This document shows positions 22,818 through 63,358 of a stretch of 64,000 bases of DNA, piece by piece (position 1 is the first letter of the stretch; each line of letters starts with the position of its first letter). The notes beneath the pieces were generated by a model, which was not told the origin of the DNA, searched no databases, and saw only the letters and a list, made by a program, of their open reading frames with translations. Source of the DNA: Octopus vulgaris. Lineage: Eukaryota. The stretch spans positions 66,712,001 through 66,776,000 of the forward strand of contig OX597820.1 of the NCBI GenBank assembly GCA_951406725.2. The letters are read 5' to 3'. Position numbers and translations under genes: made by a program.

Positions 22818-23219
22818 ATTTTACTTGTTTCAGTCATTTGACTGCGGCCATGCTGGAGCACTGCCTTTAATTGAGCAACTCGACCTCGGGACTTATTCTT
22901 TTGTAAGCCCAGTACTTATTCTATCGGTCTCTTCTGCCGAACCGCTAAGTGACGGGGACATAAACACACCAGCATCGGTTGTCAAGCAATGCTAGGGGGA
23001 CAAACACAGACACACAAACACACACACATACACATACATATATATACATATATACGACGGGTTTCTTTTCAGTTTCCATCTACCAAATCCACTCACAAGG
23101 CTTTGGTCGGCCCAAGGCTATAGTAGAAGACACTTGCCCAAGGTGCCACGCAGTGGCACTGAACCCGGAACCATGTGGTTGGTAAGCAAGCTACTTACCA
23201 CACAGCCACTCCTGCGCCT
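22818..23219 (-). mobile_element. SINE family A, full length, CpG-retaining (young)
   Basis: Complete reverse-complement copy ending cacacagccactcctgcgcc. Confidence 0.93.
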
Positions 23220-23419
23220 ATATTTATTTATATTATACTTATACTTATTTATTTTCTTTTTAAAGCTTTTGTACTCATTCTATCAGTCTATTTTGCTGAA
23301 CTGCCAAGTCACAAGGATAAGTGGTGGAGGGGGACAAACACAGACGCATAAAGAGACATGAGTAAATTCCACTGCCAAAGTGAATATTTTTGTCTTTTAC
23401 TCAGGCTGTTCCGGTATGT

Positions 23420-23629
23420 CACTCATCTGTAGAAATGAGTTGGCGGCATCACTAGTGCCAAGCTGTATCAGCCTTTGCTTTTCCCTTGGGTAACATTGGT
23501 GGTGTGCGAGAGAGGGCAACAGGTATGGATGGGTGGCTGCTAGTTTTCCATAAACAACCTTGCCCAGACTTGTGCCTTGGAGGGCAACTTCCTAAGTGCA
23601 ATCTCATGGATAGCCATGACCAAAAGGGG

Positions 23630-23635
<6 letters not shown>
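23420..23635 (+). mobile_element. SINE family D, 3' part
   Basis: ctgtagaaatgagttg..gtgccaagctgtatcagcctttg..aacaaccttgcccagacttgtgcct, matching 40875-41080. Confidence 0.8.
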
Positions 23636-23671
<36 letters not shown>

Positions 23672-24632
23672 ATTCTTTCAGGTGAAAGGATATAACTGAA
23701 TGAGCTCTGGCTTGGCTTTATGGTTAATGAGCTCATTTTGCAACCATGTAATTCCTGGCAGTGCTGTCTTAAGGGGTGGTCATACTGAGAAGTTGCCCTG
23801 ATTTATGTATACTATGATACTATGACTAGCCCTCAATAAATAAATACTATAGGGCCCAGTGGATTGATTCCCCCTGGGGGCCAATAATACGTTTAAGTCA
23901 GCTTGGGTTCCGGCTTAGATTGCACTGTATTGCACTTTGGGCATGTGGCCCCTACCAAAACCCTGAATTACTCAATACCTAAAGTGTGGAATATGGTTGA
24001 TGGAAACTGTATAAGCCAAATGTGTGTGTGTGTGTTTATTTTTGCAAGCATATATCAGCAAAAGATATAAATATTGGCAAAACCAGTTGTCTTCAAATGA
24101 AGTCCTTTGCAAAATTTGTTCCTTACCGAATTACAGAAAACCCCTTGCTATTCTCTCCTTCGGAAATACAATGAATCTATGATACTAGGGCCATTGGAAA
24201 CCTGTAACAAACTACACTATTGTACTCAATTACATTATCATCGCAACAACAACAACAATAAATTTAATAATTATAATAATAGATAAGTAAATTGATATAG
24301 ACAATAGAAATACAAAAGCTGTGGCTAATAAGTAAGTCTTCAGCTTTGGATTTGTGCAAGTAGAACTAACACACTAATCCATAGACATCAGACAGATTCA
24401 CTTGAACAAGATCTCCTCTTAATCCATATAAGCTGATAAATTATTTATTTCATACGAATACTAAATAAATGTGTTTTCTTCCTGACTGTTTCCTGATCAT
24501 CAGTCTCCATCAATTAAATCACTTAGATTATATAATATGGCTGGCTTCGTCATCCTCATCATCATCATCACCATCAATATCATTATTCATTTTTTAATGA
24601 TGATAATCATCACCACTATCATCATTATTATA

Positions 24633-25285
24633 AAGGTGGTGAGTTGGCAGAGTCATTAGCAAGCTAGGCAAAACGCTTGGTGGAGTTTCATCTTATCTTT
24701 TCATTCTGTGTTCAAATTCCACCTCGGGTATTAAACTTTGCCGTTCATCCTTTCGAGAGTCGACAGAATAAGTACCAGCTGCGTTCTGGGGTTAATGTAA
24801 TCGACTTGCCCTCTCCACTGAAATTACTGCCGTTGGCAAAAATTTGAAACCATTATTATTATGATCATCAGCATCATCATCATCATCATCATCACAAAAT
24901 AGCAAACTGGCAGAATCATTAGCAAGTCAGACGAAATGCTTAGTGATATTTTGTCAGTCTTTAGTTTATAAGTTCAAATTCCACTGAGGTCGACTTTGCC
25001 TTTCATCTTTTCAGGGTCGATAAATTAAGTACCAGTTACACACTGGAGTCGATGTAATCAACTTTTCTCTCCCCCGAAATGTCAGGCCTTGTGCCTACAA
25101 TGGAAAGGATTATTATTATTATCATTATTATTACTTGTTCTTGTTGTTAATCCGCCAAGGTCAGCTTTACCTTTCATCCTTTCGGGGCCGATTAATTAAA
25201 TACCAGTTGTGTACTGGGGTCAATCTAATCGACCGGGCCCCCTCCCCTAAAATTTCAGGCCTTGTGTCTAGAGTAGAAAGCATTA
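24633..25285 (+). mobile_element. Three head-to-tail SINE family B copies (24633-24855, 24897-25115, 5'-truncated 25150-25285)
   Basis: Repeated ctggcagaatcattagc / ttcaaattccac / tttcatcctttcgggg / taagtaccag blocks separated by (ATT/ATC)n. Confidence 0.88.
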
Positions 25286-26979
25286 TAATTTGTTGTTGTA
25301 GTTCAGTCACAACCTGTGATCAAATGTTTCCTGTCTGTCAGTTGAAATTAGGACTGACCTGCGAACTAAATAATAACTCAAAAGTTTGTTGTTTTGTCAT
25401 TCTAATTTAGGAGATTGGTGTCTGTCCAGCTTCTGTGCATTGATAATTTGTTTGGTAGCCTGGAATTTGTGAGAGATGGTGTAGAATGGTTTCTGCACAG
25501 TCTTGGGAGTACATAGAAGTGAATTGTGGAATTAGCTGAGGTATGCAAGAACAAGGTAGTTGTCATGTCGGTTTGTCCACTTTCACTTTCCCAGAAAAAA
25601 AAAATGTAATCACTGCACACTGAAGAGATTTAAAGAAGAGGAAAAATGAAGACTTGAAAAAGTGTCTTTAGATTACCTTCTTGTTTTCTTTCTTTCTTTT
25701 CTCTTATTACTTTCCATTTAAATATATTTTCTGTTCTCTTTTTGTTGTTGTTGTTGAAATTATCACGTGTGTTACGTAAATAGTTGCCTTAGTAACCTGA
25801 ACATGGTTTCAATGTTGGAATAATAATGGAGAGTGCTGCTTCTGCCAAGGTGACATGCTGCAAGTAAATTGGATGAGGTAGAAGATGATGAGATAAGATG
25901 TGGTCGGAGTTTCCTTTCCAATGAAAGAGCAGCCATAGTTTCAAGAAAGTTTCTATGTTCCATCTTTAAGGAAATGAGAAAACTCGTAGGTCATCAGAAG
26001 ATGGCAAACTTTGATAGAATTTTCTGTGTATTATTTTTGTAATGTATTTAATGTTCTGGTGCCAAATGTGTGAATAGCATCTCACTAGTTAAATTGAGAT
26101 TTCTTTGAGTGTTAGTCATGGCTTGGAAATCTAAAAGACTGCCAGGCTGCAAATAATCCAAACCACTTGATGTTTTTAAAAGGCCAGCACTTGAGGAATT
26201 TAAGTGTTTAGTTTGAAATTCAGTAGAAATTCTATTTGTACATTACTGTTTCTCCCTAACTAAAGGACTTTGATGTGAGAATGTCATTTTCCATTCCTCA
26301 CCATATTTCTTGAAGCTCTATTTTCTTCAAATCCTGACTGTTATTCCTTGAAGCTCTTTGAAAAACTAGACTTTTAATCATTTACACTTTCAAGTGAGGG
26401 ATGATTTTAGCTTTTCAGGTTCAAACCTCATTTTAAGTACATTTCAACATTGATTAGCCCACTTGCACAGTACTAAACTTCTGAAGATTTTTGGTCTCGA
26501 CCATTTTTCTTTTATTCATTTATCTATTTATTTATTTTCTGTCTTATATTTAAATCTCATTGTTTTAATTCCTGTGTAAGAATTATTGACAAAGTGCATT
26601 CAGTTACACATTTCAAGATTTTGAAATAAAATTGACCTGACACATTTTCCTGTCCAGTAGTTTATTTATATCCCAGCCAGGCCTAAAAGACAAACCTAGT
26701 GAGATTACACTATTTATAAGATGATCTTTTAGAAACTATTGTTGCCTTTTAGTTCACAATTTGATGCTGCCACTATTGAATTTGTCCAATATAGTAGAGG
26801 GTTTCGAGGAATCAGAGGAATTCAGTATCAACTGTGTGTACAGTTTGGTAACTATAGTGCATATTGTATTTGAGGGAATTCCGCTGTGTGATATTGTGGG
26901 ATATCAGTGTTGTGTATAAACAGAGCTGTAGAGACTAATGTGGTGCTTATATTGGTATCAACTCCTATAGAGAATATAT

Positions 26980-27180
26980 ACTTTCATAAAGCCCTATGTC
27001 CACTACACATTCTTTATTTTCTCTCCTTGTTTCTTTCTGTGCTCCTTTCTGTGGAAGAGCATAGGCTCGAAATGTTAAAGACATTTTCACTTCCCAAGCG
27101 TTATACTAATACATCTGTTTGTTGTGTACACCACCTGTCTTCGTATTTTGTTTCTTTTGTGAATTCTCCCTATCTATATA
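26980..27180 (+). mobile_element. Penelope-like terminal-repeat relic carrying a degenerate hammerhead motif
   Basis: gtggaagagc-atag-gctcgaaatgttaaagac: a GAAGAG..CTCGAAA core followed by ..taatacatctgtttgttg. Confidence 0.5.
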
Positions 27181-27837
27181 TATGGGTTTGGGTGTGCTTA
27201 TGTATTGTAGAAGCAGCTGTAGAGAATATATAGTAAAGTGTACATGTACTATCAAAAATAACAGCATTTTAGAAGAAATAAGCTAAAAATGGTATTTGAT
27301 AAATTCATTGATACAACATACATTACATATATTTGATATAGACTTGTATAGTTAGAATAATTAAATTTTTATTGAAAATTCTTTGAAAGATTGGATCCAA
27401 AGGGGATTAAGCATAACGAAAAGTTTTATATAAAGTATTTAAATAATTTATTTAGTTTAAAAACAATAAAAACTACTTCATTTCATTGCTGCAGATTTCC
27501 CCAACTATTATTTTATTAATCACTGGTGAGCCGGTGCTGTCAGAAATGATGGTAATACTCTCACATATTAAAAGTTATTCATATTCTCGGTTTACACCAA
27601 AGAACGTAGGGGGGAAAATATTGGCAAGAGTTTACTGCCAACAGACTTGTTGGTTTGGTTTATACGTGAATATTACTGACAAAATCCTTTGCAAATATTC
27701 TTCCTAAACAAAAAAAAAAAAAAAAAAAACTGGAGTTAATGCAGTTCTCTTCATTGGTTCTGCTACTGACTTACATGATAAAAAATTATGTGAACAAAAT
27801 TATGAAAAATTAGTTTGTATATATATATATATATATA

Positions 27838-27966
27838 AGGCACAGGAGTGGTGTGTGGTAAGTAGCTTGCTTATCAAGCACATGGTTCCAGTTCAGTCCC
27901 ACTGTGTGGCACCTTGGGCAAGTGGTTGGTAAGCAAGCTACTTACCACACGGCCACTCTAATGCCT
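27838..27966. mobile_element. Fold-back made of two inverted SINE A heads
   Basis: 27838-27881 is nearly the reverse complement of 27922-27966. Confidence 0.85.
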
Positions 27967-28779
27967 AGGACTGGTAACAAGTTTGAATTAAAGGGCTTAA
28001 CTGACTGAAACTTTGAGGTCACTGTCAACTATATTCTTGTTTAAGAATAGTAAATTTGTACTCTAAGAAGGTATAGGATAACCCCTGAGATTAATGTAAA
28101 ATTGCTTTTACTATAAAAGCAAACATTCAAAAACACACGCAAACAGGTTTGAGGTAGCATGACAGGAAGAGACAGAAGAAAGACAATGCTTGGTCTTAGT
28201 GGATCTATATGATAAAAATACCCTCTAGGCTGGTTAGGAAGGTTGGGTTATGTGAGGGTCAGCCCCTAGTGATATCAGTGACTGCACTGCAAATTGAACC
28301 AGGGTTTCTTACACATCCCAGTTTATTCAGGTTTTGTCTGTTAGTTTGTGGGGGGGTTCCCTCCACCACCACCACCACCCTACCCCAAACAACCTCCCGC
28401 TGTTCCTAGAGAATTATTAAGTTTGTTCTGGTGTTCAGTGGTGCTTGACATGTAACAATAGTACCACATGTATATTTGCTCAACCGTGGCACCTGATGTA
28501 ACTAATTTCGGAAATATTACACAATGTCATTGCCAACAAATCTACAAACATTTATGTTCAGCTAGTTTGCACACACATATACAAATACACACGTGCACAC
28601 GCACACTGAATACATATATACTTACACACTCATAAGCAAGTGTGTGTGTGTGTGTGACTGTGTATAATCACATTCATATTTATATGCACACTCACCACAC
28701 ATGCGCATATGAAATGTATATACATGTATATATTTAAGCACGTGTATTTATGTACCTATATGCATACACACACACACTC

Positions 28780-29265
28780 ACATAGAAGAGCACTCACATA
28801 CATGTAAACATATGTATATATACATATATGTATGCAGATATACATATGCATGTATATGTACATATACACATGCATGCGTGCATACACACACATAGAAGAG
28901 CACTTGCAAATATGTAAATATGTGTATACATACATATATGTATGCAGATATACATGTGTATGAATGTATACACACTCTTGCACACACACATACACACATG
29001 GAAGTGCACTCACAAATATGTAAGCCTACATATGCATACATATATGTATACAGATATACATACATATGTCTATGAATGTATGCACACGCTTACATACATA
29101 CACACACACTCAATGAAGAGCACTTACATATATACATAAATGTATGCAGATATACACATGTATGACTGTATACACACGCTTGCACACAGACACACACATA
29201 CACACATATATAGAAGAGCACTCACATATATATACATACATATATGCATGCAGATATACATATGT
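28780..29265. repeat. Minisatellite of about 100-115 bp period (5 units) with embedded microsatellites
   Basis: atagaagagcactcaca-like anchors at about 28782, 28892, 28998, 29113 and 29210, each followed by a tatgcagatataca-like motif. Confidence 0.8.
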
Positions 29266-29619
29266 ATGTGTACACACACACACACACACTCACACACACA
29301 TGTGCAGAATATTTCAGTGTCATGAATATTTAAATATGGTGAAAAGCATTGACCTTGGATTTGAATAGAACTTATCTAGAGAAACAAAATGAACTCAATT
29401 TAGTCAGTGTAGTCTTTGGGAAATCTTCTGGAATTATGTTGGTTTCAGCATCATCTTTCACATTGAATTTCCTACAGAATGCCTACGTGTATATCACTAT
29501 ATATTTCTTATATAGCTCTGTGTATGTGGTGTGTGTGTGTGTTAACAAGTTGTTGAGATCAAGAACTAAGTACTTTAAGCACTCCGCTTACCAAATTCCT
29601 GTTTGTTTCCACCATCTGT

Positions 29620-29840
29620 CATCATCATTTTAGCGACCACTTTTTCCATGCTGGCATGGGTTGGATTGAATTTGTCGATGAAGATTATCTCCAGCCTGAT
29701 GCCTTTCTTGATGCTAACCCAAGTAAGGTAATATTTCCTTGTGACCAAACATGTTTCTACACAAGACTGGAAACAAAGGACACTACTGGTATGGTGGTGA
29801 CACTCGCTTATGACTGTCATATGATGTCAAGACAAAGGGA
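29620..29840 (-). mobile_element. Family G-related repeat
   Basis: Reverse complement matches 40505-40740; also matches 54255-54470. Confidence 0.75.
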
Positions 29841-30159
29841 CAGTAACACACACATACCCATGCTAGCATGGAAAACAGATGCTAAATGATGATGATTGTG
29901 AGATAAATGAGTCATCTTATGTTGCTTCTGTTGTTCTGTTAAGAGTCTTTATTGTGATGTAAGCATAGTACAGTTGGGTGTGCGCTATGCACGACATCCA
30001 TAAGATTACATAACATGTTATGCAAGTCCCAACTCATCAGGCTACTAAAAAAGCAAGCAAGCAAGCAAGCAGTGGCATGCTGCTTAATCACTGCTCACTT
30101 GTTTATCTGGCCTCACACTCAAACACATGTAGATAGACAGATATACAGACAGACAGACA

Positions 30160-30652
30160 ACAAGCTTCTTTCAGTTTCCATCTAGCAAATCTGTTCATAA
30201 GGCATTGGTCAGCTTGAGGCTTTAGTGTAGTGGTTCCCAAAGTGGGTGTTATTCTCCCCCCCCCCCCGGTGGCGGTGGAAAGTTCCAAAGGCACGTTCAA
30301 GGAAAATGGAGTGATGATGGGGTAGCAATTCATGTAAAAAGTTGGGTGATAATGGGGTAGATATTCATGTAAAAACAACAAAATAATGTTTTTCATTAGG
30401 TTAAGTTTCATTTGTGAAATACAGTTGCTTTTGAATTTACTTCAGAAAGAGGTCTATGTTTGTGACGGTTAATCGGGGTGAGGGCGCTCGGAATGTAGCC
30501 CGAGTGCCAAGGGGGCGGCAGCCCAAAAAAGTTTGGAAACCACTGCTTTATTAGAAGACATTTGTCCATAATGCCATATGGTAGAACTGAACGAGAGACA
30601 AACCTGATTAGGATGAAATAAACTCCTCAACCACACAGCCATGTCTCTGCCT
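30160..30652 (-). mobile_element. SINE family A 5' half, interrupted by a hAT MITE
   Basis: gcttctttcagtttccatct..gaggcttta|insert|ttagaagacatttgtcc..ccacacagccatg. Confidence 0.8.
30228..30545. mobile_element. hAT (Charlie-type) MITE
   Basis: TIRs tagtggttcccaaa / tttggaaaccactg; imperfect 8-bp TSD ctttagtg / ctttatta. Confidence 0.85.
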
Positions 30653-31049
30653 ATGCATGTATGAATCTAAAGAAATAGTGTTATTGCAGTCTATTATGAG
30701 AACAACAAAGAATGGAAGATGATAAGATAATAGCAGTGTTGATATATGGAGAGATGTATAGAAGATTCATATTTTCAACATGATTTAATGTTGGCTTCCA
30801 TATATCTGTGTATGTGCATGTATGCACATAAATGTATATGTGTGTTGATGTCAGAGTGCATGCACATATATATATGCAAGTCTATCTTTCAGTATGTAAA
30901 TCAAATAATGTAATGTGTTTGTGTGTGTATGTGTGTGTAAATGTGTCTGAGTGTGTGCTAGCGTCAGAGTGCATATATATATATAAATATATGTATGTAT
31001 GTATGTGTAAGCGTACCTCTGAAAGTATGTAGGTTTAGTAGTATGTACA

Positions 31050-31080
<31 letters not shown>

Positions 31081-31397
31081 CAAATACAAACACATACGTT
31101 TGCCAGTATGTTTATGGGGTCTCGTGCAAGTGGTGATTGGAAGGTAACAATAGAGAAAAAGAGAGAAGTGTACCTCTGTACGTATGTACACATGTACGTT
31201 TTTGTGTGTGTTGTTGTTGTTGTTGTAATTGTTGTTGTTTCCAAGGTGATAGTTTGGGTTGTTGTGCAGAGCAGTAAATTGCTAAGTTAGAGCTGTTAGT
31301 TTGTGTGTTTTTTTGTTGTTTTTTTTGCTTTGTTTTTTTTTTTTTTTTTTTTTTGCTGGATTACAGCTAAGTGTAGGCAACATAGCATGAATTCAAA

Positions 31398-31431
31398 CTA
31401 CCACCATAGATCAAGTGATCTATGGTGGTAG
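31398..31431. repeat. Perfect 16-bp inverted repeat with a 2-nt spacer
   Basis: ctaccaccatagatca-ag-tgatctatggtggtag. Confidence 0.95.
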
Positions 31432-31754
31432 CACAATCTATGGTTCTTCGACTCTCCTCCCACCTCACTCCATGTCGATGAATGAATGGACATAGGGTGA
31501 GGAAGAAAGGTAGGGAGACAGGCAGACAGACAGGCAGGGTTTGAGAGAGAGGGAGCAAGAAAGTGAAGGAGAGAATGAGAGGAGAAAGGGAAAATAAGAA
31601 TTATTGCTAGAAAGAAACAGGGAAGTAAAGACAAACAGAGGGAGTGTGTAACGGAGAGCAAGAATGAAAAAGAGAGAGTGAGAATGAAAGAGAGAAAGAG
31701 AGAGAGAGGGGGGAGGACAAGAATGTGAAATTAAAGAAATGTAGGAAGAATAAG

Positions 31755-31789
<35 letters not shown>

Positions 31790-31940
31790 AAGAATGTGAA
31801 TTAAAGAGAGAGTTCATATTCTAGAGACATGTATTGAAGCTTAAGTAATGGCCAGTTCTTGTCTGCCTTGCATGGTCTACAACACTTCGCATCATTGACA
31901 TATGGAATAACAAGAGCCAAAAGACAGTTGTATATGCAGC

Positions 31941-31988
<48 letters not shown>

Positions 31989-32184
31989 AAAAAAGAGAGG
32001 GAGACAAACAGAGAGAAAGATAGAGAGTGAGTGAGAAAGAAAGACAGACAGACAGACAGGGGGAGAGAACTCACATTGTTGAAAAAAAATAAGAAGAAAA
32101 AACCCACCAGTAGTCTTTATTATCATGCTAAACACTTCCTGTTAGATCAGCTTGTTGCAATCGTCATTCTTGAGGCCTCCATCC

Positions 32185-32230
<46 letters not shown>

Positions 32231-32447
32231 TTTTTTGGTCTGCTCTTGGTAGTTTTTTTTTTTGTTGTTGTTCATTTTGTAGTTGCTTTTGTTTGTTTTT
32301 GTTATTGTTGTATTTGTTGTTGTTGTTGTGGCTACTGTTGAACCTGCAGTTGTTGCTGTTTTTGTTATTATTATTGTATTTCTTTGTGGTGTTTAGAAAA
32401 TGAAAAGCTGTTCTTCACCAAGAAATTCTTTGATGGTTTTATTTATT

Positions 32448-32486
<39 letters not shown>

Positions 32487-33424
32487 GTTGTTGTTGTGCT
32501 TTGTTGTTGTTTCTTTCCATAAAACCAACAAACCAATTGTTATTGGCATCGAGACTGAAAAATCTTTTCTTATTTTGCTGCAAAGACCTGATCTGGTCTG
32601 GTCTGATCTGGTCTTGTACTCTCAGCATAATATTGACATCGATGCCTGCTGTTAGCATTTAGAAACCGCTTGCAGATCAATGAGGAAGCGATTGAATCAT
32701 TTAGAAGTGGTAATCGAATCTTCCTCACCAGCCAGAGTTCTCCAGAAACTTAGGGTACTGCATTCTTGTGAGACCTATGGGGTAATTATATGCAAATGTA
32801 TCTTTAACCTTTAGCACATTGTAGGTTCATCATGTCACCATATGAGTTTTCTCCCATATAGTAACAGAGGAGTGGTAGAGGAAATAACTCTGGAGAAAAT
32901 GCAGTGTGTTAAATGTTAAATTCATTTCTGCGTTTTAAGTCTATAATTTAAAATTTATAATACGTACATGCCATATTTGGAATCATGGTGTATGTGCATA
33001 GTGAGAGGGTCCCTCTGAGAAAATGGCTTCATAATAGGGAGTTGTAAGCGAATTCAATATGAATTCTTTGTTTAAGATGATATTTAGCCAATTTGAACTC
33101 AGAACGTAAATGCAGACGATGATGATGATGACAAAAATGGCCTCTGATTTAGGCACAAGGCTAACCATTATGAAGGAAGGAGACGAGTTGATATCAACCT
33201 TAGTAATCATCTGTTTTTTTTTCAATTTTGTCAACCATCAAGAAGTGACAGAAACAAATAAATGTTTTAAGATTTCTTTCTATGAAGGCCAGTGTTGAAT
33301 CTTCCAAATTTCTTGCAGATTTTCCTCATCTCACCCTAATTCATCTGTCTGGAGTAATGTGTGTGTCTGTGTTGTGTGTGTGTCTGTGTGTATGTGTATA
33401 GATTTAACATTTTTTAAAATCTTT

Positions 33425-33770
33425 TCATCTTTTACTTAAAGAATTTTTAATTGAATGAATTGACCCTGGTAGGTTTTTGTTCTTTTAAAATCCTGGTACT
33501 TGTCATCCTATTGGGCTCTCTTACCAAACTGCTACTGGTAAGTTACAGGGATGTAAACAAACAGACAAACACTGGTTGTCAAGTGATGGTAGGGGGAAAA
33601 AGCACACACACACATACACACACACATATATGTGACATGATACTTTCAGTTTCCATCTACCAATTCCACTCATAAGGCTTTGGTCAACTTCATGCTATAA
33701 TAGAAGACACTTGCCCAAGGTACCACGCTGGGACTGAACCTAAAACCATGTGATTGGGAACTAAGCTTTG
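33425..33770 (-). mobile_element. SINE family A, degenerate
   Basis: ggtacttgtcat..gttacagggatgtaaaca..ggttgtcaagtgatgg..tttcagtttccatctacc..gaagacacttgcccaaggtacc. Confidence 0.8.
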
Positions 33771-34035
33771 GTTATATATATATATTTTCATTATGCAGTT
33801 TTTTTATCTTTTCATTTAACACATTCATGAAGACATTTTGCTACCATGTAGGTCTTCTGACATTTCTTTCATATTTTAAATATTTTTTTCTTTTACAGAT
33901 GTCTCTCTGACGTGTGTGTGTGTGTGTATGTGTGAGAAAGACTATATCTATTAATCCGTGTGTATGTGTGCGTGTATGGTACATAGACAAACTTTATATT
34001 CAAAGACAAAGCTAGTCATTACTGTATATGTATGC

Positions 34036-34080
<45 letters not shown>

Positions 34081-34494
34081 ATATATATATATATAAAATG
34101 TACACACACATAACACACATATGTATAGTATATATGCATATATATATAAAATGTTCATACACACACACACAGTATATGTACATATATATATATATAAAAT
34201 GTACATAGAGACACACACATATATATATATAAATCTACACACATATTCACACACACACACACACATATAATGTACATCGGTATATACATATATAAAATGT
34301 ACATGCATATATATATATAATGTATATATTTACACATACGCATGCTCACTAACACATAATTATTTGTGCAAATATGCATATATCTATGCACAATATTACA
34401 CAATATAATATTCATATATTATATGTAAATGTATGTACATGATTCTTCTGCTCAACTTCTTATTCTACCTACTTATTGGCATCGTGCTATATAT

Positions 34495-34535
34495 ATTATA
34501 ACCTCTGTATTTTTTCTCTCTATTTCTAGGTAAGT
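34495..34535 (+). other. Candidate recursive splice site (3' splice site directly followed by a 5' splice site)
   Basis: ttataac (branch-like) + ctctgtattttttctctctatttct + AG (34528-34529) directly followed by GTAAGT (34530-34535). Confidence 0.55.
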
Positions 34536-34614
34536 GTCATATATTATACACACATCTTTTTTTCAAGAGTGTTTCATCAACATACATAATGATGTGAGTA
34601 CATAACATTCTCTA

Positions 34615-34619
34615 TATTA

Positions 34620-34681
<62 letters not shown>

Positions 34682-34688
34682 CTTACTA

Positions 34689-34776
<88 letters not shown>

Positions 34777-34803
34777 CATTATTATTATTACTATTATTAT
34801 TAC

Positions 34804-34863
<60 letters not shown>

Positions 34864-34942
34864 AAAGGATTATTATCATTATTAGAAAGGATTGTTGTTA
34901 TTTTTATTATTATTATTGTTGTTATTATTATTATTATTATTT
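34615..34942. repeat. Long interrupted (ATT)n microsatellite
   Basis: Directly visible. Confidence 0.95.
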
Positions 34943-35022
34943 GTTCTTCTTATTGTTGCTGTTATTGTTTCCTTGTTTTCCTTCATCTTTCTTCGTTTCA
35001 TCTCATTCCCATTCTCAGGAAT

Positions 35023-35056
<34 letters not shown>

Positions 35057-35314
35057 TGCATAAAAGACAGAGGGGGGTATTATTTCTTTTACAGCTAGCT
35101 CCTTGTTTGATGTGCATAGCATATTACATAATGAATATGTGTGTGTGTGTGTGTATGTGTGTGTGTGTGTGTGCGTGTTTGTATGTATATGTAAATAGGG
35201 GACATCTTTTCTTCGAAACATATTAAAACACGACTATGTTCAACTTTAATCTTTTTTATAAAGGAATTTCATATTACCTTATTAGTCTGTATATATATGT
35301 GGTTGTATATGTGT

Positions 35315-35362
<48 letters not shown>

Positions 35363-36187
35363 ACATAGTTGCTATGGAGTCTTCATTTCCTCATTTCAGG
35401 TGTGCATCATAATGGGTTTTATGGTTTGTTTTTTTTTATTAATTTTCCATTCTCTCATCTGTTTTTTTATTATTTTTTTTAATTGCCCCCCTGCTTTTAT
35501 TAACTTCTTTTGAACCAAATGATTTTTCTATTTCACACACACAGATGCACACATACAAATATACATTCAAGCAAACAAACACACCAGGAATATATAAACA
35601 TGTTGTTTATCAATAACCTAAGGGACTTTTCATGCTAACATGAAAGTCTAGCCCCTAAAGTCACTTCTGTAGTTTTACAGCTGCAAATAAAATAATACAG
35701 ATACTCTCAACTTCATGTGCTGAGTTCTGTTTCTCCCATTTGTATAACCTATACACACACACACACACATATATATATGTATATTTATATTAATTAAAAG
35801 TGTACAGTAATATAACCATTATAACCAATTTTTCCAATCAGTTTCATACTGGGTGTTAAATTGGACATTAGATAACTACTCAATTGTGTAACCCTATGCT
35901 CATCAGAGCAGGCCATATGGAAGAAAATATGCTGACTTACGGATTCTTACACACATATGTAATATATATATATAAAGTCTTACAAAAGACCATGAGTCAA
36001 AAAACAGGCACACATATATTTGGAAGTATTATGGATCCATTTCAGTCAGTTTTTACATGAGAGATGGGGGGGGGGAACCCAGTCTTGGCACTCAACAAAA
36101 GGGCTGATAGGATGACAATGGTTCTTTTGCACAGAGACCGAGAAAGTGTCAAGTCCAGTTTGAGGGTGCTTATCTACCATATTCAAA

Positions 36188-36512
36188 GTGAAGGCGCATA
36201 GCTTAGTGGTTAGGGTATCCGACACACTGTCCTAAGGTTGCGAGTTCAATTCCCAATGGTGTGTTGTGTCCTTGAGCAAGACACTTTTATTTCACGTTGC
36301 TCCAGTCCACTCAGCTGGCAAAAATGAGTTGTACCTATAAGTCAAAAGTCCAGATTTGTCAGATTCCGTGTCACATTGAATCTCTGTGAGAACTACGTCA
36401 AGGATATGCATGTCTGTGGAGTTGTCAGCCACTTGCATGTTAATTTCACAAGCAGGTTGTTCCATTGATTGGGTCGCCTGGAACCCTCATTGTCATAACC
36501 GGCAGAGTGCTT
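36188..36512 (+). mobile_element. SINE family E, full length (tRNA-derived)
   Basis: Head gtgaaggcgcatagcttagtggttaggg..gagttcaattccc, then gtgtccttgagcaagacact and cactcagctggcaaaaatgagt. Confidence 0.85.
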
Positions 36513-37654
36513 AGTTCTTCCTAATGGTGTAAAAGATTCATTACCTCAACTTCAGCAGTGGATATTCAGAAAAACATGTAATAGATAAAGTAACTTCACA
36601 TATATACGTCCTGGGGCTTTTTGTTGTCTCTTTTCTTAGACATTTTTTTGGGGGGGAGATGCACCTGATATACCATTAAATTCAGTACAGTAGTTGCTTT
36701 GTTGTTGTTTAACCACAGACCAACTACAAAAGCTTTCCAACCTTGACTATCCCATCTATTAAAAGGTATATAGGATTACATTATCAAATATATCTTTTCT
36801 TTTCCCAAGGCTGTGATTTGAGAGAGATTTGGATATGATATCTTCAAAGTCTGCTGAAGCTGCTCCATGTACACATTACATATGTAATATTTTATTCAGT
36901 GGGGGTACGTATGAGAAGTGATAGGGAATACTAGGGAGTACATTATGCCTTGCTCTGGGAATTTCTTGGGATCTAAGAAAAAAATATATATTTGCATATA
37001 GTGAAAACTAGCATTAGCATCACCAGCAAAAGAAACTTTGTTCTCCCTGATAAAATTCCTGTCTGAGGCCTTGATTTTATATGTAAAATATATTTGCATC
37101 ATAAAATGCCCCAGGGGGTCATTTCATGGTATAATGCTTAGCTTCACCAGACTAAATGCCAGACAGTTATTTGCTTACAATTTCTTTTATATAGTTTTAA
37201 GTTCAAATCTCAAAGGGCTGAGGTGGTGGGGGTTTGAGCCCTCCTCCTTCCTTTTATCCCTCCCAGTGGATTTGATGGATGATAGAATCATTTAATGGGG
37301 TCGAAAAGGATCAACTAAATCAACCATATGCTCTCCTTTCCTTTTCTGTAGTCTTCTTTTATTTGCTAGTCATTGAGTTGTGGCCATGCAGGAGCACCAC
37401 CTGTAAGAGTTTAACGAAGCAATCAGCCCTAGTTATTTTTTTTTAAAGTCTGGTACTGTCAGTGTCATTTGCTAAACTGCTAGCTTATTAGAATGTAAAC
37501 AAACCCTCACTGGTTGTCAAGTATTGTAGGGACAAACACATAAACATGCATGCATACACAGACACATAGATACATATATGCATATACATATACTACATAC
37601 ATAATAACATACATACATACAAGCACACAAGCTTCCTTCCACACAGTTTCTTAT

Positions 37655-37822
37655 TTCTTTATTGCCCCCAAAATAGAGGGGACAAACAAGGACAGACAAA
37701 GGGATTAAGTCAATTACATCAACCCCAGTGCGTAACTGGTACTTAATTTTTCAACCCCGAAAGGATGAAAGGCAAAGTCGACCTCAGCGGAATTTGAAGT
37801 CAGAATGTAACGTCAGATGAAA
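37655..37822 (-). mobile_element. SINE family B with the alternative tail shared with 45299-45520
   Basis: agaggggacaaacaaggacagacaaa..ccccgaaaggatgaaaggcaaagtcgacctc. Confidence 0.85.
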
Positions 37823-37976
37823 CCTCTCCTATTGTTGTTGTTGTTCCAGATGTCTCCCACATCTGCCATACGTAGGCATACAATCACATCTCCAGTCTAA
37901 GATTTTTGTCTTTCTCTCCTCAAATTCCCTCCATTGGACAATCTTGTGTGTTTTAATATCTCTGTTTATCATAAGA

Positions 37977-38240
37977 ACCATCGAAATCTTAAGAACCACC
38001 AAGGAGAACAAATATAGGAAGAGTTGACCACATTGCATGACTGAAGGACACTGGATGGTCAGTCAGGGTGACAGAAGGGACATCAAGACAATGGACAAGA
38101 TCAGGAGCCTGACCAAAGACAAGATGGCAAAATGATCCCACCCACTACATGGGGCCTATGTGACCAAGACTGGCCAGAGACAGACAACAGTGAAAGGAGT
38201 CCAGGGAGGGCTTCCTCCTTCGGGAGTAATGAAGCCCTGG
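37977..38240 (+). mobile_element. RTE-clade LINE, 3' end of ORF (pseudogenised)
   Basis: With one frameshift translates as IEILRTTKENKYR/VDHIA*LKDTGWSVRVTEGTSRQWTRSGA*PKTRWQND..GPM*PRLARDRQQ*KESREGFLLRE*, matching the RTE C-terminal pattern GHIAR..RW..V.EW.PR..R.RGRP.TRW.D..W..LARDR..W; stops fall at R and W codons. Confidence 0.85.
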
Positions 38241-38394
38241 TTGAGGTTGGCAAGACTGGACAGTGGGCAACACACAGAGATCCCAGAGTTGTTGTTATTT
38301 TAAACAAGAAGACCTATGACTAAAGATGTTCCAGCCAGGACCATCCTTTATATTTTTTCACAACTTCCGCAGCAGAAGTGTTATGACTGATCCT

Positions 38395-38680
38395 TCTGGT
38401 GGTGCCACATAAAAGTGTCTGAGCAGCGCCATGTAAAAGCACCCATTCTGTGCCATCTAAAAGCTCCTGTGCGGTGCCTCATAAAAGCATCTATGCGGTG
38501 CCATGTGAAAGTGCCCATCACATTCTGTAAAGTGGTTGGCATTAGGAAAGGCATCCAGCTGTAGAAACCAGGCCAAAACAGACTACGGAACCTGGTGTGA
38601 TCCCCTGGCCATGCCAGTTCTTGTCAAGTCGTCCAACCCATGCCAGCATGGACAATGGATGTTAAATGAGGATGATGATA
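38395..38680 (+). mobile_element. Family G element with internal tandem units of about 25 bp and a (GAT)n tail
   Basis: Five gtgcca.ntaaaagc-like units, then gttggcattaggaaaggcatccagctgtagaa and ccaacccatgccagcatgga..gttaaatgaggatgat. Confidence 0.8.
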
Positions 38681-38760
38681 TATCCTTTTATAACTTAAAG
38701 AGTATGATTTTGAGGAAATATTTTCAGCTGTTATCACATACACGACAAATGTTCCCTTGA

Positions 38761-38920
38761 TTGCAGCAGGCCATAGATATTGACTCGTAAGAATCACCAT
38801 CATTTTTCAGCACTATAATGTGGAATATTGACTCGCAAGAGTCAACATTGTTTGCAGCAGGTTGCAGTACCATGCTATGATGTTAACTCGTAAGAGTCAC
38901 CGACCATCATTGCAGCAGGT
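38761..38920. repeat. Three-unit array of GNRA-capped hairpins
   Basis: tgactc-GTAA-gaatca, ttgactc-GCAA-gagtcaa and taactc-GTAA-gagtca, separated by linkers containing ttgcagcagg-like motifs. Confidence 0.8.
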
Positions 38921-39428
38921 TACTTCACCATGCCTTGTTATTTCTAATACTGCCATTGGCTGTTTGACAACTGGTTCTTTCTCTCTCTTATTTCAATTTT
39001 TTTTGGTGTTGTGTTGTTTTCTTTTTCTTTTTTTTTCTTTTTTTTTAAACTACTTTAAATCACCGTTTTTTTTTTTTTTTTTTTTTTTATGTTGTTCCTT
39101 CTCGGAAAGGTCTTCTGAATTAAGGAAGAGAAGTAGAGGGGAAGAAAAACAAAAGCAAACCAGCAACAACAATGATACCTCTTCCCCCCACTCCTCTCTC
39201 TCTCTCTCTCTCGAATATTTACATTTGTCTGCTTCTTTGAACATCAAAAGGTTAAAAGCTGTGTGGAATCTTCTCCAACATCACTGCATTGAACTTGTAT
39301 ATCCGCGACTGTTTCGGGATTTGTGTGCGTGTGTGTATATGAATGTGTGTGTGTGTGTCTGTGTGTCTGTCCACTGTTTGATCCTCTTAATTCATAGTTG
39401 TGTTAGCAATGGACTGTATGCAACCCTC

Positions 39429-39459
<31 letters not shown>

Positions 39460-39494
39460 GATTGATTGATTCCAGTTTCAGCTTATGAGCTGTG

Positions 39495-39531
<37 letters not shown>

Positions 39532-40045
39532 ATATATATATATAGCTATGTCTGTTTGTTGTCTCTTACATTCTGGTTTGTGTAACACTCTGTGTGTGTG
39601 TGTGTGTATGAGACCCATTTTGTAGATTGTATGTGTGTGTATGAAACACTTATAGTATAGACTGTATGTATGTGTATGCATGTGTGAGTGTGTGTTTGTG
39701 TGTGTGTGATATAAGATGCTTGAGTGTCCTTATAGCATGGATTATATGAGTTTATATAGTTCTTTGTAAGTCTGTATATTACTCAAATGTTTGTATACAT
39801 CTGTCGTGTGTGTGTGTTTGGTTATTTGTGTATTGGAGCGATATAATTGTCTGTCTTGTGTGTGTATGTGTATGTGTATTTTCATAGCTGTTTGCTCTTA
39901 CTGACACAAGACCACTTCAGCATGAAGTGGAACCATGTGGAACCACCGTCTTTGATTCTGGCTCCAACATAACCGTATTCCTACAGACATACTTTTGACT
40001 CTTTTTTCCTTTATTCGACAATACTTATAGATCTCGGTGTCCTTA

Positions 40046-40230
40046 TTGTTTAACCCCAGGTCATTTTTGGTTAAGTAAACCTATGATCAAATGCATTCCA
40101 AATACGACCATCTTGTCTTTTGCTCAAGCATTGTTTATCTAATACTATTGAATCTATTCTCAGACAGTAGAGTGTATTGTTTAGGAAATTTGGCTGCTAT
40201 TTCTGGCAGACCAAGTAAGCACCTAGAGAC
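40046..40230 (+). mobile_element. Old interspersed repeat, family H
   Basis: ttgtttaaccccaggtca..acctatgatcaaatgcattcca..gaccatc..tttggctgctatttctggcag; related pieces at 36698-36850, 38290-38345 and 56000-56150. Confidence 0.6.
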
Positions 40231-40316
40231 ATTTTGTTGCTGAAGTGTATATTGTTGTTTTTAAATATTGTTGATGTCATAGTGGTATTTAGCCCTGAGT
40301 CAAACCTCATCCAGTA

Positions 40317-40740
40317 GATGTGTGTGTATGATATACAGGCATGGTAAGAACTTTTGTTTCCCCAACCTCGTGGTTTTGAGTTCAATCCTACCATCTGGCA
40401 TTTTGGGCAAGCATCTTCTATTATGGCCCTGGGCCAACCAAAGCCTTGTGATTTGATTTAGTAGACAGAAACACAAAGAAACCTGTTGCGTGTGTGCATG
40501 CATGCGTGTGTTACTGTCTTCGTGCTTTGACATTGTATGATAGTTGTAAATGAGCGTCACCATCATACCAGTGGTGTCGTCCTTTGTTTCCAATCTGCCA
40601 TGAAAACATGTCTGGTCATGAGGAATATTATCTTTCTTGGAAACAGGTGAGGGTTGGTGACAGGAAAGGCATCTGGCTGTAAAAAATCTATCTTGATAAA
40701 TTCCATCTGACCCTTGCAGGCATGGAAAAGTGGACAGTAA
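40317..40740 (+). mobile_element. Chimeric SINE: family A head joined to a family G-type 3' part
   Basis: ttcccaacctcgtggttttgagttcaatcc..tgggcaagcatcttctatta followed by gggttggtgacaggaaaggcatctggctgtaaaa..gcatggaaaagtggac. Confidence 0.7.
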
Positions 40741-40761
40741 AATTTTGTGTATATATATATA

Positions 40762-41090
40762 GGTGAAGGCGCATTGTTCCATGGTTAGCGTGTCAGGCTC
40801 ACAATCATGAGGTAGTGAGTTTGATTCCCGAACCGGGCTGTGTGTTTGTGCTCTTGAGCAAGATTCTCTATCTCAGCTGTAGAAATGAGTTGCGATTTCA
40901 CTGGTGCCAAGCTGTATCAGCCTTTGCCTTTTCCTTGGATAACATCAGTGGCACGGAGAGGGGAGGCTGGTGTGCATGGGCGACTGCTGGTCTCCCATCA
41001 ACAACCTTGCCCAGACTTGTGCCTGGGAGGGTAACTTTCTAGGTGTAAACACATGGTCATTCAAGACCAACGGGAGTTTTTACTTTACTT
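40762..41090 (+). mobile_element. SINE family D, full length
   Basis: tRNA-like head gtgaaggcgcattgttccatggttagcgtgtc..gagtttgattccc; tail (tttac)n. Confidence 0.85.
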
Positions 41091-41197
41091 CTATATATGC
41101 ATGTATGTATGTGTATGTGTGTTTGTGTATATATACATATATATATGTGTGTGTGTGTGTGTATGTATACACACACACATATATATGCATATATATA

Positions 41198-41338
41198 TGG
41201 GCTTCCACACAGTTTCCATCTTCCAATTTCACTTTGGCCATAGAAGACACTTATCCAAGGTGCTGCATGTTGGGACTGAACCCAGACCCATATGGCTGCA
41301 AAGCAAACTTCTTAACCACACAGCCATGCCTGCACCTA
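41198..41338 (-). mobile_element. SINE family A, 5' half
   Basis: gggcttcc..agaagacacttatccaaggtgc..ccacacagccatgcctgcacc. Confidence 0.8.
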
Positions 41339-42552
41339 TGCTCGCGTATGTATAAATGTATCCAGCTATTTCTTTATCATTCATCTGTGTATGAGTGTAT
41401 ATACATGTGTCTGTGTATAGTATTAGAGAAAGAGGGAGAGTGAGAGGGAGGGAGAGAGTGGGGATGGGAGAGGGAGTTCCACCAATGGATTTGTCCATAT
41501 TTGCACTTGTGTGTGTGTGTGTGTGTGTGTGTTTGCATCTCATGCCTAGCTTCTGGTTTTCCAAAGACTGCTTGCCACATCCTGGTGCTTAAATTGAGGA
41601 CAACTGATCAAATGGTAGACTTGAAGTGTTGCCAAGCTGTGTCAGCATTTCAAAATCGCTTTCGTTCTCTTTCTCTCTCTTTCTCTCTCTCTACCACCTC
41701 ACTCCTTTATTCCATCCTTCCTTCTCTCTCTCTCTCTCTCTCTTCTCCTCTCTTCTCGTCTTTCCAGACAGCTACTCTAAACCGTTCCAACTAAATTTAC
41801 CGGTTATTCTTTCCATCATCGTCATCGTCATCATCATCATCATCATCATTATCATCATTATCGTCATCATCACTATTATCATTGTTATCGTCATCATTAT
41901 CATCATTGCCATCATCATCAATATCTTCAATATCAACATCATCATCATCATCATTGGCTTCATCATCAATCATCAATCAATGGCAAATCTCTACCACCAC
42001 CACTACCATCACAACTACTATTGAAACATCTACCTGTCTGTTTGTCTGTCTGTATGTCTGTCTGTCAAATCGAGATTTCCAAATGATGATAGTGATGATG
42101 ATGATGATGATGATGATGAAACGACGATGGTGGTGATGATGAAGATTGTGGCATCAACGGCAATAATGGTGGCAGTGATGGTGATGATATGAGAATCTCG
42201 AATGATATTTCTGGAAATATCTTTTATTACCCACCCACCCCTCTTGTCACCATCACCACCACCACCACCAGTCACCTGCATCCACATATTTTTGCTAAAG
42301 CTTCCACAATTATAACGTCATACCTTTCTCATGTCACTTAATTACTCTCCTTCCTCCCTCTCCCTCTCCTCCCCTGTTGCTGTTACTCTCCCTCTATCTC
42401 CATTGTTGTATGTGTGTATGTATGTGTGTATGTATACATGTGTGTGTGAATTTGTGTGTGTGTGTGTATATGCTTAGGCATATATGTATACATATATATG
42501 TGTGTATATTTATGTGTATGTATGTATATATATATATATATATACATATGCT

Positions 42553-42583
<31 letters not shown>

Positions 42584-43249
42584 CTAAAATGTATATATGC
42601 ATGTGTGTACATGTACATTTATATATGTGTGTGTATGTGTTTATATGTATGTATACATGTGTGTGTGTGTGTGTGTGTGTGTAAAACCACCCTTCTGCCA
42701 AACCTTGTGGCCCGCAATGTAGTTGACTCCTTGACACACATACATACACTTAACTCAGGGACATTCTCTCCCACCCCTCTCTCTCTCTCTCTCTCTCTAG
42801 CTTGCTTCCCCCCCCCCCCTCTCTCTCTCATTCTCCTCTGTCACATCATATTTTCTGTCAACTTCTCACAGCTAAAATACTTTACCATATTCTCATTAAA
42901 TTGATTGGAGAGGCTAGGCAACTGTGAAAGGTTGAGAGGAGGGGTTATCACTAGTGGTGGGTGATGTTCTTGTGGTGGTCATGGCTTTGCTTTTTTATTT
43001 TTGTTTTTTCTTCCTTTTTTTTTTTTTGCTTCACTACTCTAAATATTTCTCTGCTGGTTAATGATGTTGAAGTTGATATTGGGAGAAGGATGAAGTAAAA
43101 TAAAGAAATAATCAACAAATCCATACCGTTAATAATGATGATGTTGATGGTAATAATAACAATAATAATTTCTTTCATTAGTCACAACGGCATAGATGAG
43201 GGAGACCCCACAAACACACGCACACACACACATATATATATATACAATA

Positions 43250-43400
43250 GGCTTCCTTCAGTTTCCATCTACCAAATCCACTCACAAGGCTTTGGTCAGC
43301 CTGAGGCTATAGTAGAAGACACTTGCCCAAAGTCGCATGCAGTGGGTCTGAACCCGAAACCATGTCGTTGAGAAGCAAACTTCCTACCACCCAGCCACAT
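43250..43400 (-). mobile_element. SINE family A, 5' half
   Basis: ggcttccttcagtttccatctaccaaatccactcacaaggc.. Confidence 0.85.
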
Positions 43401-43454
43401 CTGTGTCTACAGATATATATGTATGTCTATCTATCTATCTATCTATCTATCTAT

Positions 43455-43830
43455 ACTCTTTTACTTGTTTCAGTCATTTGACTGCAGCCATGGTGGAGCA
43501 CCACCTTTAGTCGAGCAAATTGACCCCAGTTCTTATTCTTTGTAAGCCTAGCACTTATTCTATCGGTCGCTTTTTGCTGAACCGCCAAGTTACAGGGATG
43601 TAAACACCCCAGCATCGGTTGTCAAGTGATGTTGGGGTGACAAACACAGACACACAAACATACACACACATACATAACTTACACACACATACATAACTTA
43701 GCAGTCTGGCAAAAAGACCGGTAGAATAAGTACTAGGCTTACAAAGAATAAGTCCTGGGGTTGATTTGCTCGACTAAAGGCGGTGCTCCAGCATGGCCGC
43801 AGTCAAATGATTGAAACAAGTAAAAGAGTA
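43455..43830. mobile_element. Two inverted SINE A 3' halves (43455-43660 minus, 43696-43830 plus)
   Basis: Arms of about 135 bp are reverse complements of each other. Confidence 0.9.
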
Positions 43831-45174
43831 AACATATATATACACACATATAAACACCCATATACTGTATATATTAAGATAGATATCATCATACACAGAC
43901 ATACATTCATACGTAGATTTATGCATATGCTGACAGTTGTGTGGTAGACACAGACAGACAGTGAGACAGACAGACAAGTGGACCAGCAGAGACGGAAAGA
44001 GAGAGAGAATCTCCTTATGTGTTGTCAATGTCAGTATATATCATAGCAAAAGCATATGATCTGACATTCCCTCTACCATATTGCCATCATGTTGAATCCA
44101 CCTCATTTCTAGTGGATGGACTTGAGCTTTTTATTTACACTTCGGTGAACAGCATTAAGGTTTCAATCCAACTCTTTTCCTCCGATGGTTCTAAAACAAT
44201 AAATACAAACAGCAGTGAGGTTAATGGTGGTGGTAGTGGTGGTGGTGGTGGTGGTGGTGTTTTTGGTGGTAATGGCACAGTGTGGTGTATGGTAGTGTTG
44301 TGGTAGTGGTTTGGTTTGGTGTAGTGTATGTGTAAATATAAAAGCTGTAAGGTGATATACAGTGGTGGGGTGGGGTGATGGTAGTTTTGACAGTTTGGGT
44401 GGTACAGTATGGGTGTGGAGGCTGGTAGTTGTGGTGGTGGTGGTGGTGGTGGTAGATATAAGTGTAGAAGCTGTAGTGCCATGTGGTTGTGATGGTTATT
44501 GGTGTGGTAGCAGCAGTGCCAGAGATGGTAGTCGTTGAGGTTGTGATGTCATGTGGTGAAGGTGGTGGTTGCAGTGGTGGTACTGGTGTTGTGGTGGTGT
44601 GGTTGTGGTAGTGTTCTTGTTCTTGTCATACTGGTGGTTGTAGTACCATATGGTGAAATTCATAGTAATTTGGGTGGTACAGCGTAGGTATGGAGGTAGT
44701 AAATAGTACCATTTATTTTGTGGCATTGGGGGAAGTGAGGATGGTAGAGGCCAAAGTGCCATATGGTGGGGCTTTGGCAATGGCAGTGAAGACCTTCTGT
44801 CCTTGCCCTCGTTCAACAATGATTATAGGTGACATAAACAGTAATGTCAGAATGGCTTACCAAGACATCTCAGGGTTGACTAAGTTTCTAAGAAGGAGAT
44901 TAGGGGAGCAGCGGGGTGTGACACGGGAGTTTTGAGGCACAGGGTGAGGGTAGGCAAGGGAAAAATATCATCAGGTGCTTTTTTTTTTTTTTTTTTGATT
45001 AGATCCTTATTCAGCAGATCCATTTTCAAAAGGGATCCAGCTATGACCAGCCTGTTTTATATATATATAAATATATATATAAAATAATATAGGCTAGCAA
45101 AATTTTAGAAACCATCACAACATGGTATACAGATATTATATGATGATGATGATGATGACGACAACGACGAGGTA

Positions 45175-45560
45175 TCATGCTGGTACCATGTAAGAAAACA
45201 CTCCCGTTCACTCTCTAAAGTGGTTGGAATTAGGAAGGGCATCTAGCTGTAGAAACCATGCCAAAACAGACATTGGAACTTGGCAGGAACTTGGTAAAGC
45301 TGGCAGAAATGTTAGCACACCGGGCGAAATGTTTACCGGTATTTCATCAGCCATTACGTTCTGAGTTCAAATTCTGCCGAGGTCGACTTTGCCTTTCATC
45401 CTTTCGGGGTCGATTAAATAAGTACCAGTTATGCACTGGGGTCGATATAATTGACTTAATCTGTTTGTCTGTCCTTGTTTGTCCCCTCTGTGTTTAGCCC
45501 CTTGTGGCAGTAAAGAAATAAGGAACTTGGTAAATCATCCAATACATGCTGGCATGGTAG
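45175..45560 (+). mobile_element. Family G element interrupted by SINE B
   Basis: gtggttggaattaggaagggcatctagctgtagaa before the insertion and tcatccaatacatgctggcatgg after it. Confidence 0.7.
45299..45520 (+). mobile_element. SINE family B, young, with a 14-bp TSD
   Basis: aggaacttggtaaa at 45285-45298 and 45521-45534; CpGs retained. Confidence 0.92.
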
Positions 45561-46437
45561 TGGTGGCACCAATGGTAGTGGTGGTGGTGGAGACAGTCAC
45601 TGCAGTGGAAGTGGTGGTGGTGGTGGTGGTGGTAGTGGTGGTGTAGTGATGATGGCAATGGTGTTGAGGATGTTGATGTACCATTTGTGGACTGATGCAG
45701 ATTTATATTCCTATAAAACACATCCCTAGATGTGAATGGAATTATAACAGTTGAAGACAGTAGTTTGCTTGTTATCCTCATAATATTAGAAAAACATGTC
45801 GCAGCACTTGACAAGCAAGTATTATTGTTTAAAGAATCGGAGCTGCTTTAATTACAAAACAAAATAAATGGAAAGCAATTCAACAGAAATGGTGATGGCG
45901 GTGATGGGAGTGGGTAACTACCTCATGTTGCTATCTTTGTCGGAAAAGAAAATGAAACATTAGCTGAGAAAGATAAGAAATAATAATCTACAACACCTTA
46001 ATTCTTAATTATCACTGAGTGAAATCTTTGTATATAGACTTTCTGAGGATGTCGTTTCTTTACTCTGTTTGGCACTGATAGTTCTGATTTTGGTCTTCTA
46101 TATTTCCATAACTGTTAGTTAAGACTTTGCTGATTTCTTCACAGACAAACACAACATATGACAAACACAACAATAATGATATAACAAACAGTTAAGGAAG
46201 CTTCTGTGTGTTCGTTTGATCTGCTAGAAATAGCAACCAAAACAATATGCTTCAAAATAAAGTATTAGGTGAGTACAGAGCATAATACAATATTAAATAA
46301 ATGTCATAAATTATACAATCAACTTCATTAGCCTACAGTTGTTTCTGCTATTAGAGGCAGCAGACTCAGAGCTGAGTGCGTGTGCATTTATGAAACTAAT
46401 AACATGATTCATATTTCCTTGTCATTTATTTAATTTC

Positions 46438-46750
46438 AGTGTAGGTGTGTAGCTTAACTGCTGGGGCATTTGGTTCACAATCATAAGGCCATTAGTTTCA
46501 TACTTGGCTGTGTGTTGCATCCTTGAGCAAGACATTTCTTTCACATTGCTTGCCAAATTGAGTAGTACCTGCATTCCAACAAGCCAGCCTTGTCACATTC
46601 TGTGTCATGCTGAATCTCCCTGAGGACTCTGTTATGGGTACACATGTCTGTGGAGTGCTCAACCGCTTGGACATTAATTTCATGAGCATGCTGTTCCATT
46701 GATCGGACCAGCTGGAACCTTCATCATCGTAACCGACAGAATGCCAGTTG
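46438..46750 (+). mobile_element. SINE family E
   Basis: ccttgagcaagacattt..ccagccttgtcacattctgtgtcatgctgaatctccctgag..gtctgtggagtgctca, matching 36188-36512. Confidence 0.8.
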
Positions 46751-48317: not shown

Positions 48318-48371
<54 letters not shown>

Positions 48372-63355: not shown

Positions 63356-63358
63356 GTG

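Follow-up and report, generated by a model that had tools for sequence, protein, structure and literature searches.

Whether giant introns need recursive splicing is an open question: stepwise removal is widespread in flies and, in the available portions of two surveys, apparently not in lungfish and mammals (bioRxiv 10.1101/2024.12.11.627982; PMC2773006). The window analyzed here, a stretch of 64,000 nt (G000:C7:66712001-66776000), raises it for the octopus, an animal with very long introns. Does a 3′ splice site that runs directly into a perfect donor at position 34530 serve as a ratchet point? We find an acceptor fused to GTAAGT and joined to an upstream coding exon of dachsous; in our view it is likely a ratchet point, with the next stretch of intron removed from there in a further splicing step. 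The mechanism is already known from flies and vertebrates; octopus dachsous is a likely functional member, with unusually long steps, in a lineage for which we found no report. The original prediction knew of no description of such sites in cephalopods, and in the literature searched, which left most subscription journals outside, no report of recursive splicing in molluscs, cephalopods or octopus was found.

The Window Lies Within a 509-kb Intron of dachsous

1..64000, + strand: interior of the dachsous intron (whole window; intron at G000:C7:66425207-66934382)

The window was extended by 400 kb upstream and 200 kb downstream. A cadherin exon of 1.76 kb was located upstream by tblastn (about 66423449-66425206), and an exon scan revealed a plus-strand series of cadherin exons starting at 66934383. 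The upstream exon is 99-100% identical to dachsous proteins of Octopus bimaculoides and O. vulgaris, which bears out the assignment of the DNA to an octopus in the original prediction. It ends in CILT and the next exon starts with VSASDPDCG; the two are contiguous both in Drosophila Dachsous (P0022; residues 66-582 and 578-640) and in a 3317-aa Dachsous-like protein of Argonauta (P0242), whose exons are collinear with the octopus locus. The long plus-strand intron postulated around the site is thus that of dachsous. It measures 509,176 nt and has the site on its sense strand, the upstream coding exon ending 321 kb before the site and the downstream exon beginning 188 kb after it. Exon scan, tblastn and long-ORF listing gave no coding exon between 66425207 and 66934382, where small non-cadherin or non-coding exons may lie. 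T exceeds A in 80 of the 85 6-kb bins of the intron. By sequence comparison the intron position is an old one: 109 of 118 other Dachsous fragments cease matching just past the exon junction.

Two further features of the locus were observed. The ATG of the first coding exon (about 66423449) is preceded by a strong acceptor, which implies a non-coding first exon farther upstream; none was located within 111 kb upstream of the coding exon. Inside the intron, long minus-strand ORFs of 904, 151 and 601 aa (66632939-66638105) resemble, by eye, a Helitron Rep/PIF1-type helicase element.

Architecture of the Site

34496..34502, + strand: branch-like TTATAAC, putative; candidate A at 34501 (-29); imperfect, with no YTRAY fit
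34502..34525, + strand: polypyrimidine tract, 21 of 24 pyrimidines; TT at -6/-5
34526..34529, + strand: CTAG, 3′ splice site; junction with the upstream dachsous exon in the X4 contig and in RefSeq XP_052825800.1
34530..34535, + strand: GTAAGT, ratchet-point donor, presumably reused after the first step
34530..34593, + strand: candidate cryptic RS-exon of 64 nt, predicted from sequence; frame-shifting, stop at codon 20
34594..34599, + strand: weaker donor GTGAGT; the X4 contig has the same letters and continues past them
34859..34864, + strand: ATTAAA, possible poly(A) signal at the end of an ATT microsatellite; relevant only to a last-exon reading

All elements of the predicted motif stand at their places. 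The branch-like word is present as claimed and its A would lie at -29, but it misfits YTRAY. Upstream of the acceptor AG, the sequence is free of AG over 317 nt. The window contains 11 YAG-GTRAG sites, both strands counted, and this one has the strongest pyrimidine tract: 17 of 20 positions are pyrimidines, compared with 8-12 in the others. The description of the sequence as unique and non-SINE holds, with microsatellites on both sides (TA/CA and ATT): positions 34420-34610 have a single genome match in a search that skips simple repeats, and no interspersed repeat was matched within 464 kb. The original prediction also called the site zero-length. AG does abut GTAAGT directly; the term nevertheless needs qualifying because of the GTGAGT donor at 34594, which makes a 64-nt exon likely.

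Sister Sites Along the Intron

All AGGT words of the 509-kb intron (1308 sense, 1542 antisense) were scored with rough weight matrices of our own making. The three best sense-strand sites, with the window site at the top, all read GTAAGT, and a weaker GTATGT site at 66813655 comes next in the sense-strand ranking.

G000:C7:66604671, + strand: sister ratchet-like site, acceptor plus GTAAGT, among the top three
G000:C7:66858140, + strand: sister ratchet-like site, acceptor plus GTAAGT, among the top three

The 8-mer AG|GTAAGT is, as had been cautioned, uninformative in itself, occurring once where 2.76 are expected and thus below chance. Its juxtaposition with a strong acceptor is another matter: the sense strand of the intron carries 235 AGs that resemble strong acceptors, from which, at the local rate of GTAAGT, 0.04-0.05 fused sites are expected; three are seen (P for at least three, 1-2e-5). 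These three sites split the intron into pieces of 179, 142, 112 and 76 kb. Each has TT at -6/-5 and a weaker downstream donor (+145, +64 and +63; +64 at the window site), and inclusion of the segment so bounded would bring a frame shift or a stop at any of them. This arrangement suggests, from sequence, a hidden 64-nt, stop-containing exon at the window site rather than a strictly zero-length site.

On the antisense strand, an acceptor with a CT-rich tract, followed by GTAAGA at 66701104, equals the sense sites in score; it may reflect either chance or an antisense transcript, and such motifs therefore do arise without a ratchet role. RefSeq isoform X2 (CILT-VS-stop) was considered as support for 66858140 and set aside, as its tail fits four places in the intron and may come from read-through of the exon's own donor.

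The Upstream Exon Is Joined to Position 34530 in One Contig and One Gene Model

Seven of 24 sequence runs, all of them assembled contigs, were compared with positions 34340-34614; the RNA status of runs X1-X4 is a guess. One of these four probable RNA runs (X4) has a contig on the site. This contig is identical to the genome at 34558-34613 (56/56), and 30 letters of its 39-letter loose end were read, matching 34530-34556 with two substitutions. Immediately before 34530 it reads ACG where the genome has TAG; ACG is the last three nucleotides of the upstream exon, and within the intron only 2% of Gs follow AC. The contig then passes the +64 donor into the intron, as a first-step intermediate would, and extends 255 letters beyond 34613. 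Template switching is conceivable as a source of the join, since only 3 of the 12 upstream loose-end letters were read, the RNA status is guessed and the junction carries 8 nt of microhomology with the upstream exon's own donor. The DNA-type runs X7-X9 cover short repeat-like bits upstream only, not the site; their result and the lack of a contig in X1-X3 were given no weight in either direction.

The same junction is found in a second species. O. bimaculoides dachsous isoform X1 (RefSeq XP_052825800.1, P0121) consists of the upstream exon and a 24-aa tail which, over the whole intron, maps only to the site, with 8 of 10 residues matching from 34530 and then 14 of 14 after a 1-nt shift; donor side and use of the site are kept in this model. 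Such RefSeq models are built from RNA aligned across splice junctions, with canonical sites at the intron ends. Because the X4 contig encodes this very peptide, contig and model may go back to common data and not be independent. Together, they support splicing of the upstream exon to the acceptor, the first splicing step, at the position where the original prediction had placed it; re-splicing from the regenerated donor we infer. The read-level standard applied in flies, three offsets and an 8-nt overhang, is out of reach for contigs, and the evidence lies below it. In a gene model of O. sinensis the upstream exon runs instead into 66513334, a poor acceptor that no donor follows; some junctions into this intron may thus be noise. 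In Argonauta (P0242), upstream and downstream exons are joined directly, without the site, and for O. bimaculoides RefSeq models the site-joined form as an isoform. The octopus dachsous entries found, from three species (P0121, P0241, P0243 and P0244), all stop at the 509-kb intron. Their tails derive from the ratchet site (one entry), from read-through into the intron or from the poor acceptor at 66513334; for Argonauta the full-length protein is on record.

Could the junction instead mark an alternative last exon, in which splicing to 34530 and a nearby poly(A) site yield a short Dachsous fragment that is secreted and has some five cadherin repeats? RefSeq does model a 601-aa isoform, the X4 contig would end near the ATTAAA at 34859 if repeat lengths are equal, and a "Dachsous Ex isoform" is named in Drosophila (P0022), though as a different, 1959-aa product. 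Set against this, the contig ends in a microsatellite, where assemblies break, and AWTAAA words near the site are below chance (12 seen, 17.5 expected). Between the octopus species the tail changes both its reading frame and its length (19 vs. 24 aa), as one would not expect of a coding end under selection. Finally, a last exon has no need of a perfect donor at its start, yet all three sites have one. We regard a last exon, the strongest of the alternatives, as unlikely and retain the ratchet point as the preferred reading.

Fused Sites Are Enriched Across the Genome

The original prediction proposed a genome-wide enrichment check. Strict matches (twelve pyrimidines, N, YAG or RAG, then GTAAGT or GTAAHT) were counted over the whole genome: YAG-GTAAGT occurs 154 times, YAG-GTAAHT 164, RAG-GTAAGT 25 and RAG-GTAAHT 109. 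Fused acceptor-donor sites are thus enriched about fourfold over the alternative hexamers and RAG (odds ratio 4.1, p 1.4e-9), with some 116 of the 154 YAG-GTAAGT sites in excess and about a quarter of strict-pattern matches expected by chance; the reversed pattern has 43 genome matches. Ordinary donors behind pyrimidine-rich exon ends were considered as the source and rejected because RAG, at 25 vs. 109, shows no enrichment. A repeat origin was likewise rejected: among 40 cores, only two pairs (L065/L071 and L092/L093) are similar well beyond the motif on its 3′ side. The window site has a purine at -8, and its own class was therefore counted separately; it comprises 19 sites with GTAAGT against 5 with the three pooled GTAAHT hexamers.

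The matches also share orientation and context. Among the first 100 of the 154 matches, 12 neighbor pairs within 300 kb lie on the same strand and none on opposite strands (2.1 pairs expected), compared with five and one among the first 100 of the 164 controls. The 6-kb flanks were taken for 40 of 100 listed matches, chosen across the list and purposely including the C13 clusters, and for 20 of 100 listed controls. T exceeds A on the motif strand in 37/40 matches vs. 9/20 controls, a skew that indicates the transcribed strand only indirectly. YTRAY at -45 to -15 is present in 23/40 vs. 7/20 (background 0.2), TT at -6/-5 in 36/40 vs. 10/20, a strong downstream donor in 11/40 vs. 2/20 and a donor-like word within 25-125 nt in 27/40 vs. 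5/20 (background 0.21-0.23). With a five-site cluster on C13 left out, co-orientation stands at 8 to 0 (p 0.004) and the skew at 32/35. We think it probable that the octopus has a fly-type, genome-wide ratchet system of more than 100 and probably several hundred sites, in which a step covers 75-180 kb, or several times the longest one in flies.

The C13 cluster (L092-L096, G000:C13:4468665-4805422) consists of five plus-strand sites 37-120 kb apart. All read GTAAGTAC and have a donor 45-55 nt downstream, and two share 77% identity over 73 nt; they may have arisen by duplication of ratchet/RS-exon units that precede alternative exons. Other co-oriented clusters of the strict motif, at C13:57416518-57801944, C9:104955602-105622543, C8:15104034-15245009 and C6:97123276-97256282 of G000, are candidates for further recursively spliced giant introns.

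These counts bear on a second alternative, in which the window acceptor is leaky: strong and unselected, it would occasionally capture the upstream donor and give a dead-end product. The abundance of strong acceptor-like AGs in the intron and the poor acceptor joined in the O. sinensis model speak for such a reading; the three acceptors followed by GTAAGT, the 19-to-5 ratio of the site's own class and the use of the site in a second species speak against it, and we judge it very unlikely. Least probable of all is a chance motif combined with an artefactual junction (from template switching, a chimeric assembly or a genome that differs in the organism of the run): the below-chance count of the 8-mer, the microhomology and the want of a genomic control from the DNA-type runs can be cited for it, against the exact departure of the X4 contig from the genome at the junction, its match to the exon there with a dinucleotide so seldom found before G, and the same join in a model from the curated RefSeq pipeline.

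Proposed Mechanism

For the ratchet point, we propose the following sequence of events. As in the fly model (available text of PMC8605326), the acceptor would be recognized across the cryptic 64-nt exon ending at 34593. The first step would place GTAAGT behind the exon end and so recreate a donor whose first seven bases are those of the exon's own donor; the observed join may have come via 66604671 or directly. The regenerated GTAAGT would then outcompete the weaker GTGAGT at 34594, so that no site sequence reaches the mRNA, and further splicing would lead from site to site until the exon at 66934383 is reached, with no trace remaining. Together with 66604671 and 66858140, the site would divide removal of the intron into about four steps, of 179, 142, 112 and 76 kb, to which the GTATGT site at 66813655 may add another.

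If the octopus does have a genome-wide system of this kind, fixed-site recursive splicing exists in molluscs beside insects and deuterostomes, and among the short octopus "isoforms" in current annotation are splicing intermediates that happened to be captured. A named gene with exact coordinates, a junction and a candidate list make the need of giant introns for recursive splicing testable in a third animal lineage.

Comparison with Known Recursive Splicing

Intronic ratchet points are known in Drosophila Ubx, kuz, luna and Bx (bioRxiv 10.1101/006163 and the available text of PMC8605326), with branch points at -36 to -21 (bioRxiv 10.1101/006163) and TT at -6/-5 in 196 of 197 sites (the same two sources). 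The octopus site resembles them in its AG/GT core, long T-rich tract and TT at -6/-5, in the presence of several sense-strand sites in one long intron, in its exon-to-site junction and in a developmental host gene; a weaker downstream donor bounds a short out-of-frame cryptic exon in both, as predicted from sequence for the octopus. The scale differs: recursive fly introns span 11-133 kb and leave in pieces of 2.6-63.6 kb, whereas the octopus intron spans 509 kb, with pieces of 76-179 kb. Fly ratchet points are backed by sawtooth coverage, lariats and mutants, the octopus site by its motif and the exon-to-site join.

Vertebrate RS-exon sites, as described in the accessible parts of PMC8605326 and bioRxiv 10.1101/2024.12.11.627982, share with the octopus site very long introns and, under the mechanism proposed here, exon definition via a poison RS-exon and donor competition. 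Only nine fully suppressed recursive sites are noted for mammals (Sibley 2015, as cited in the same portions of these two sources), in contrast to an excess of about 116 octopus sites under one strict pattern alone, and the available text of PMC2773006 gives little motif enrichment in vertebrate long introns. In insects and sea urchin, that text gives a 4- to >20-fold enrichment of fused sites in long introns, and the octopus counts are alike in showing a several-fold enrichment in an invertebrate with long introns. The two analyses differ in that the survey, in the part available, includes no mollusc, and in that the octopus control consists of alternative hexamers and RAG rather than annotated sense and antisense introns.
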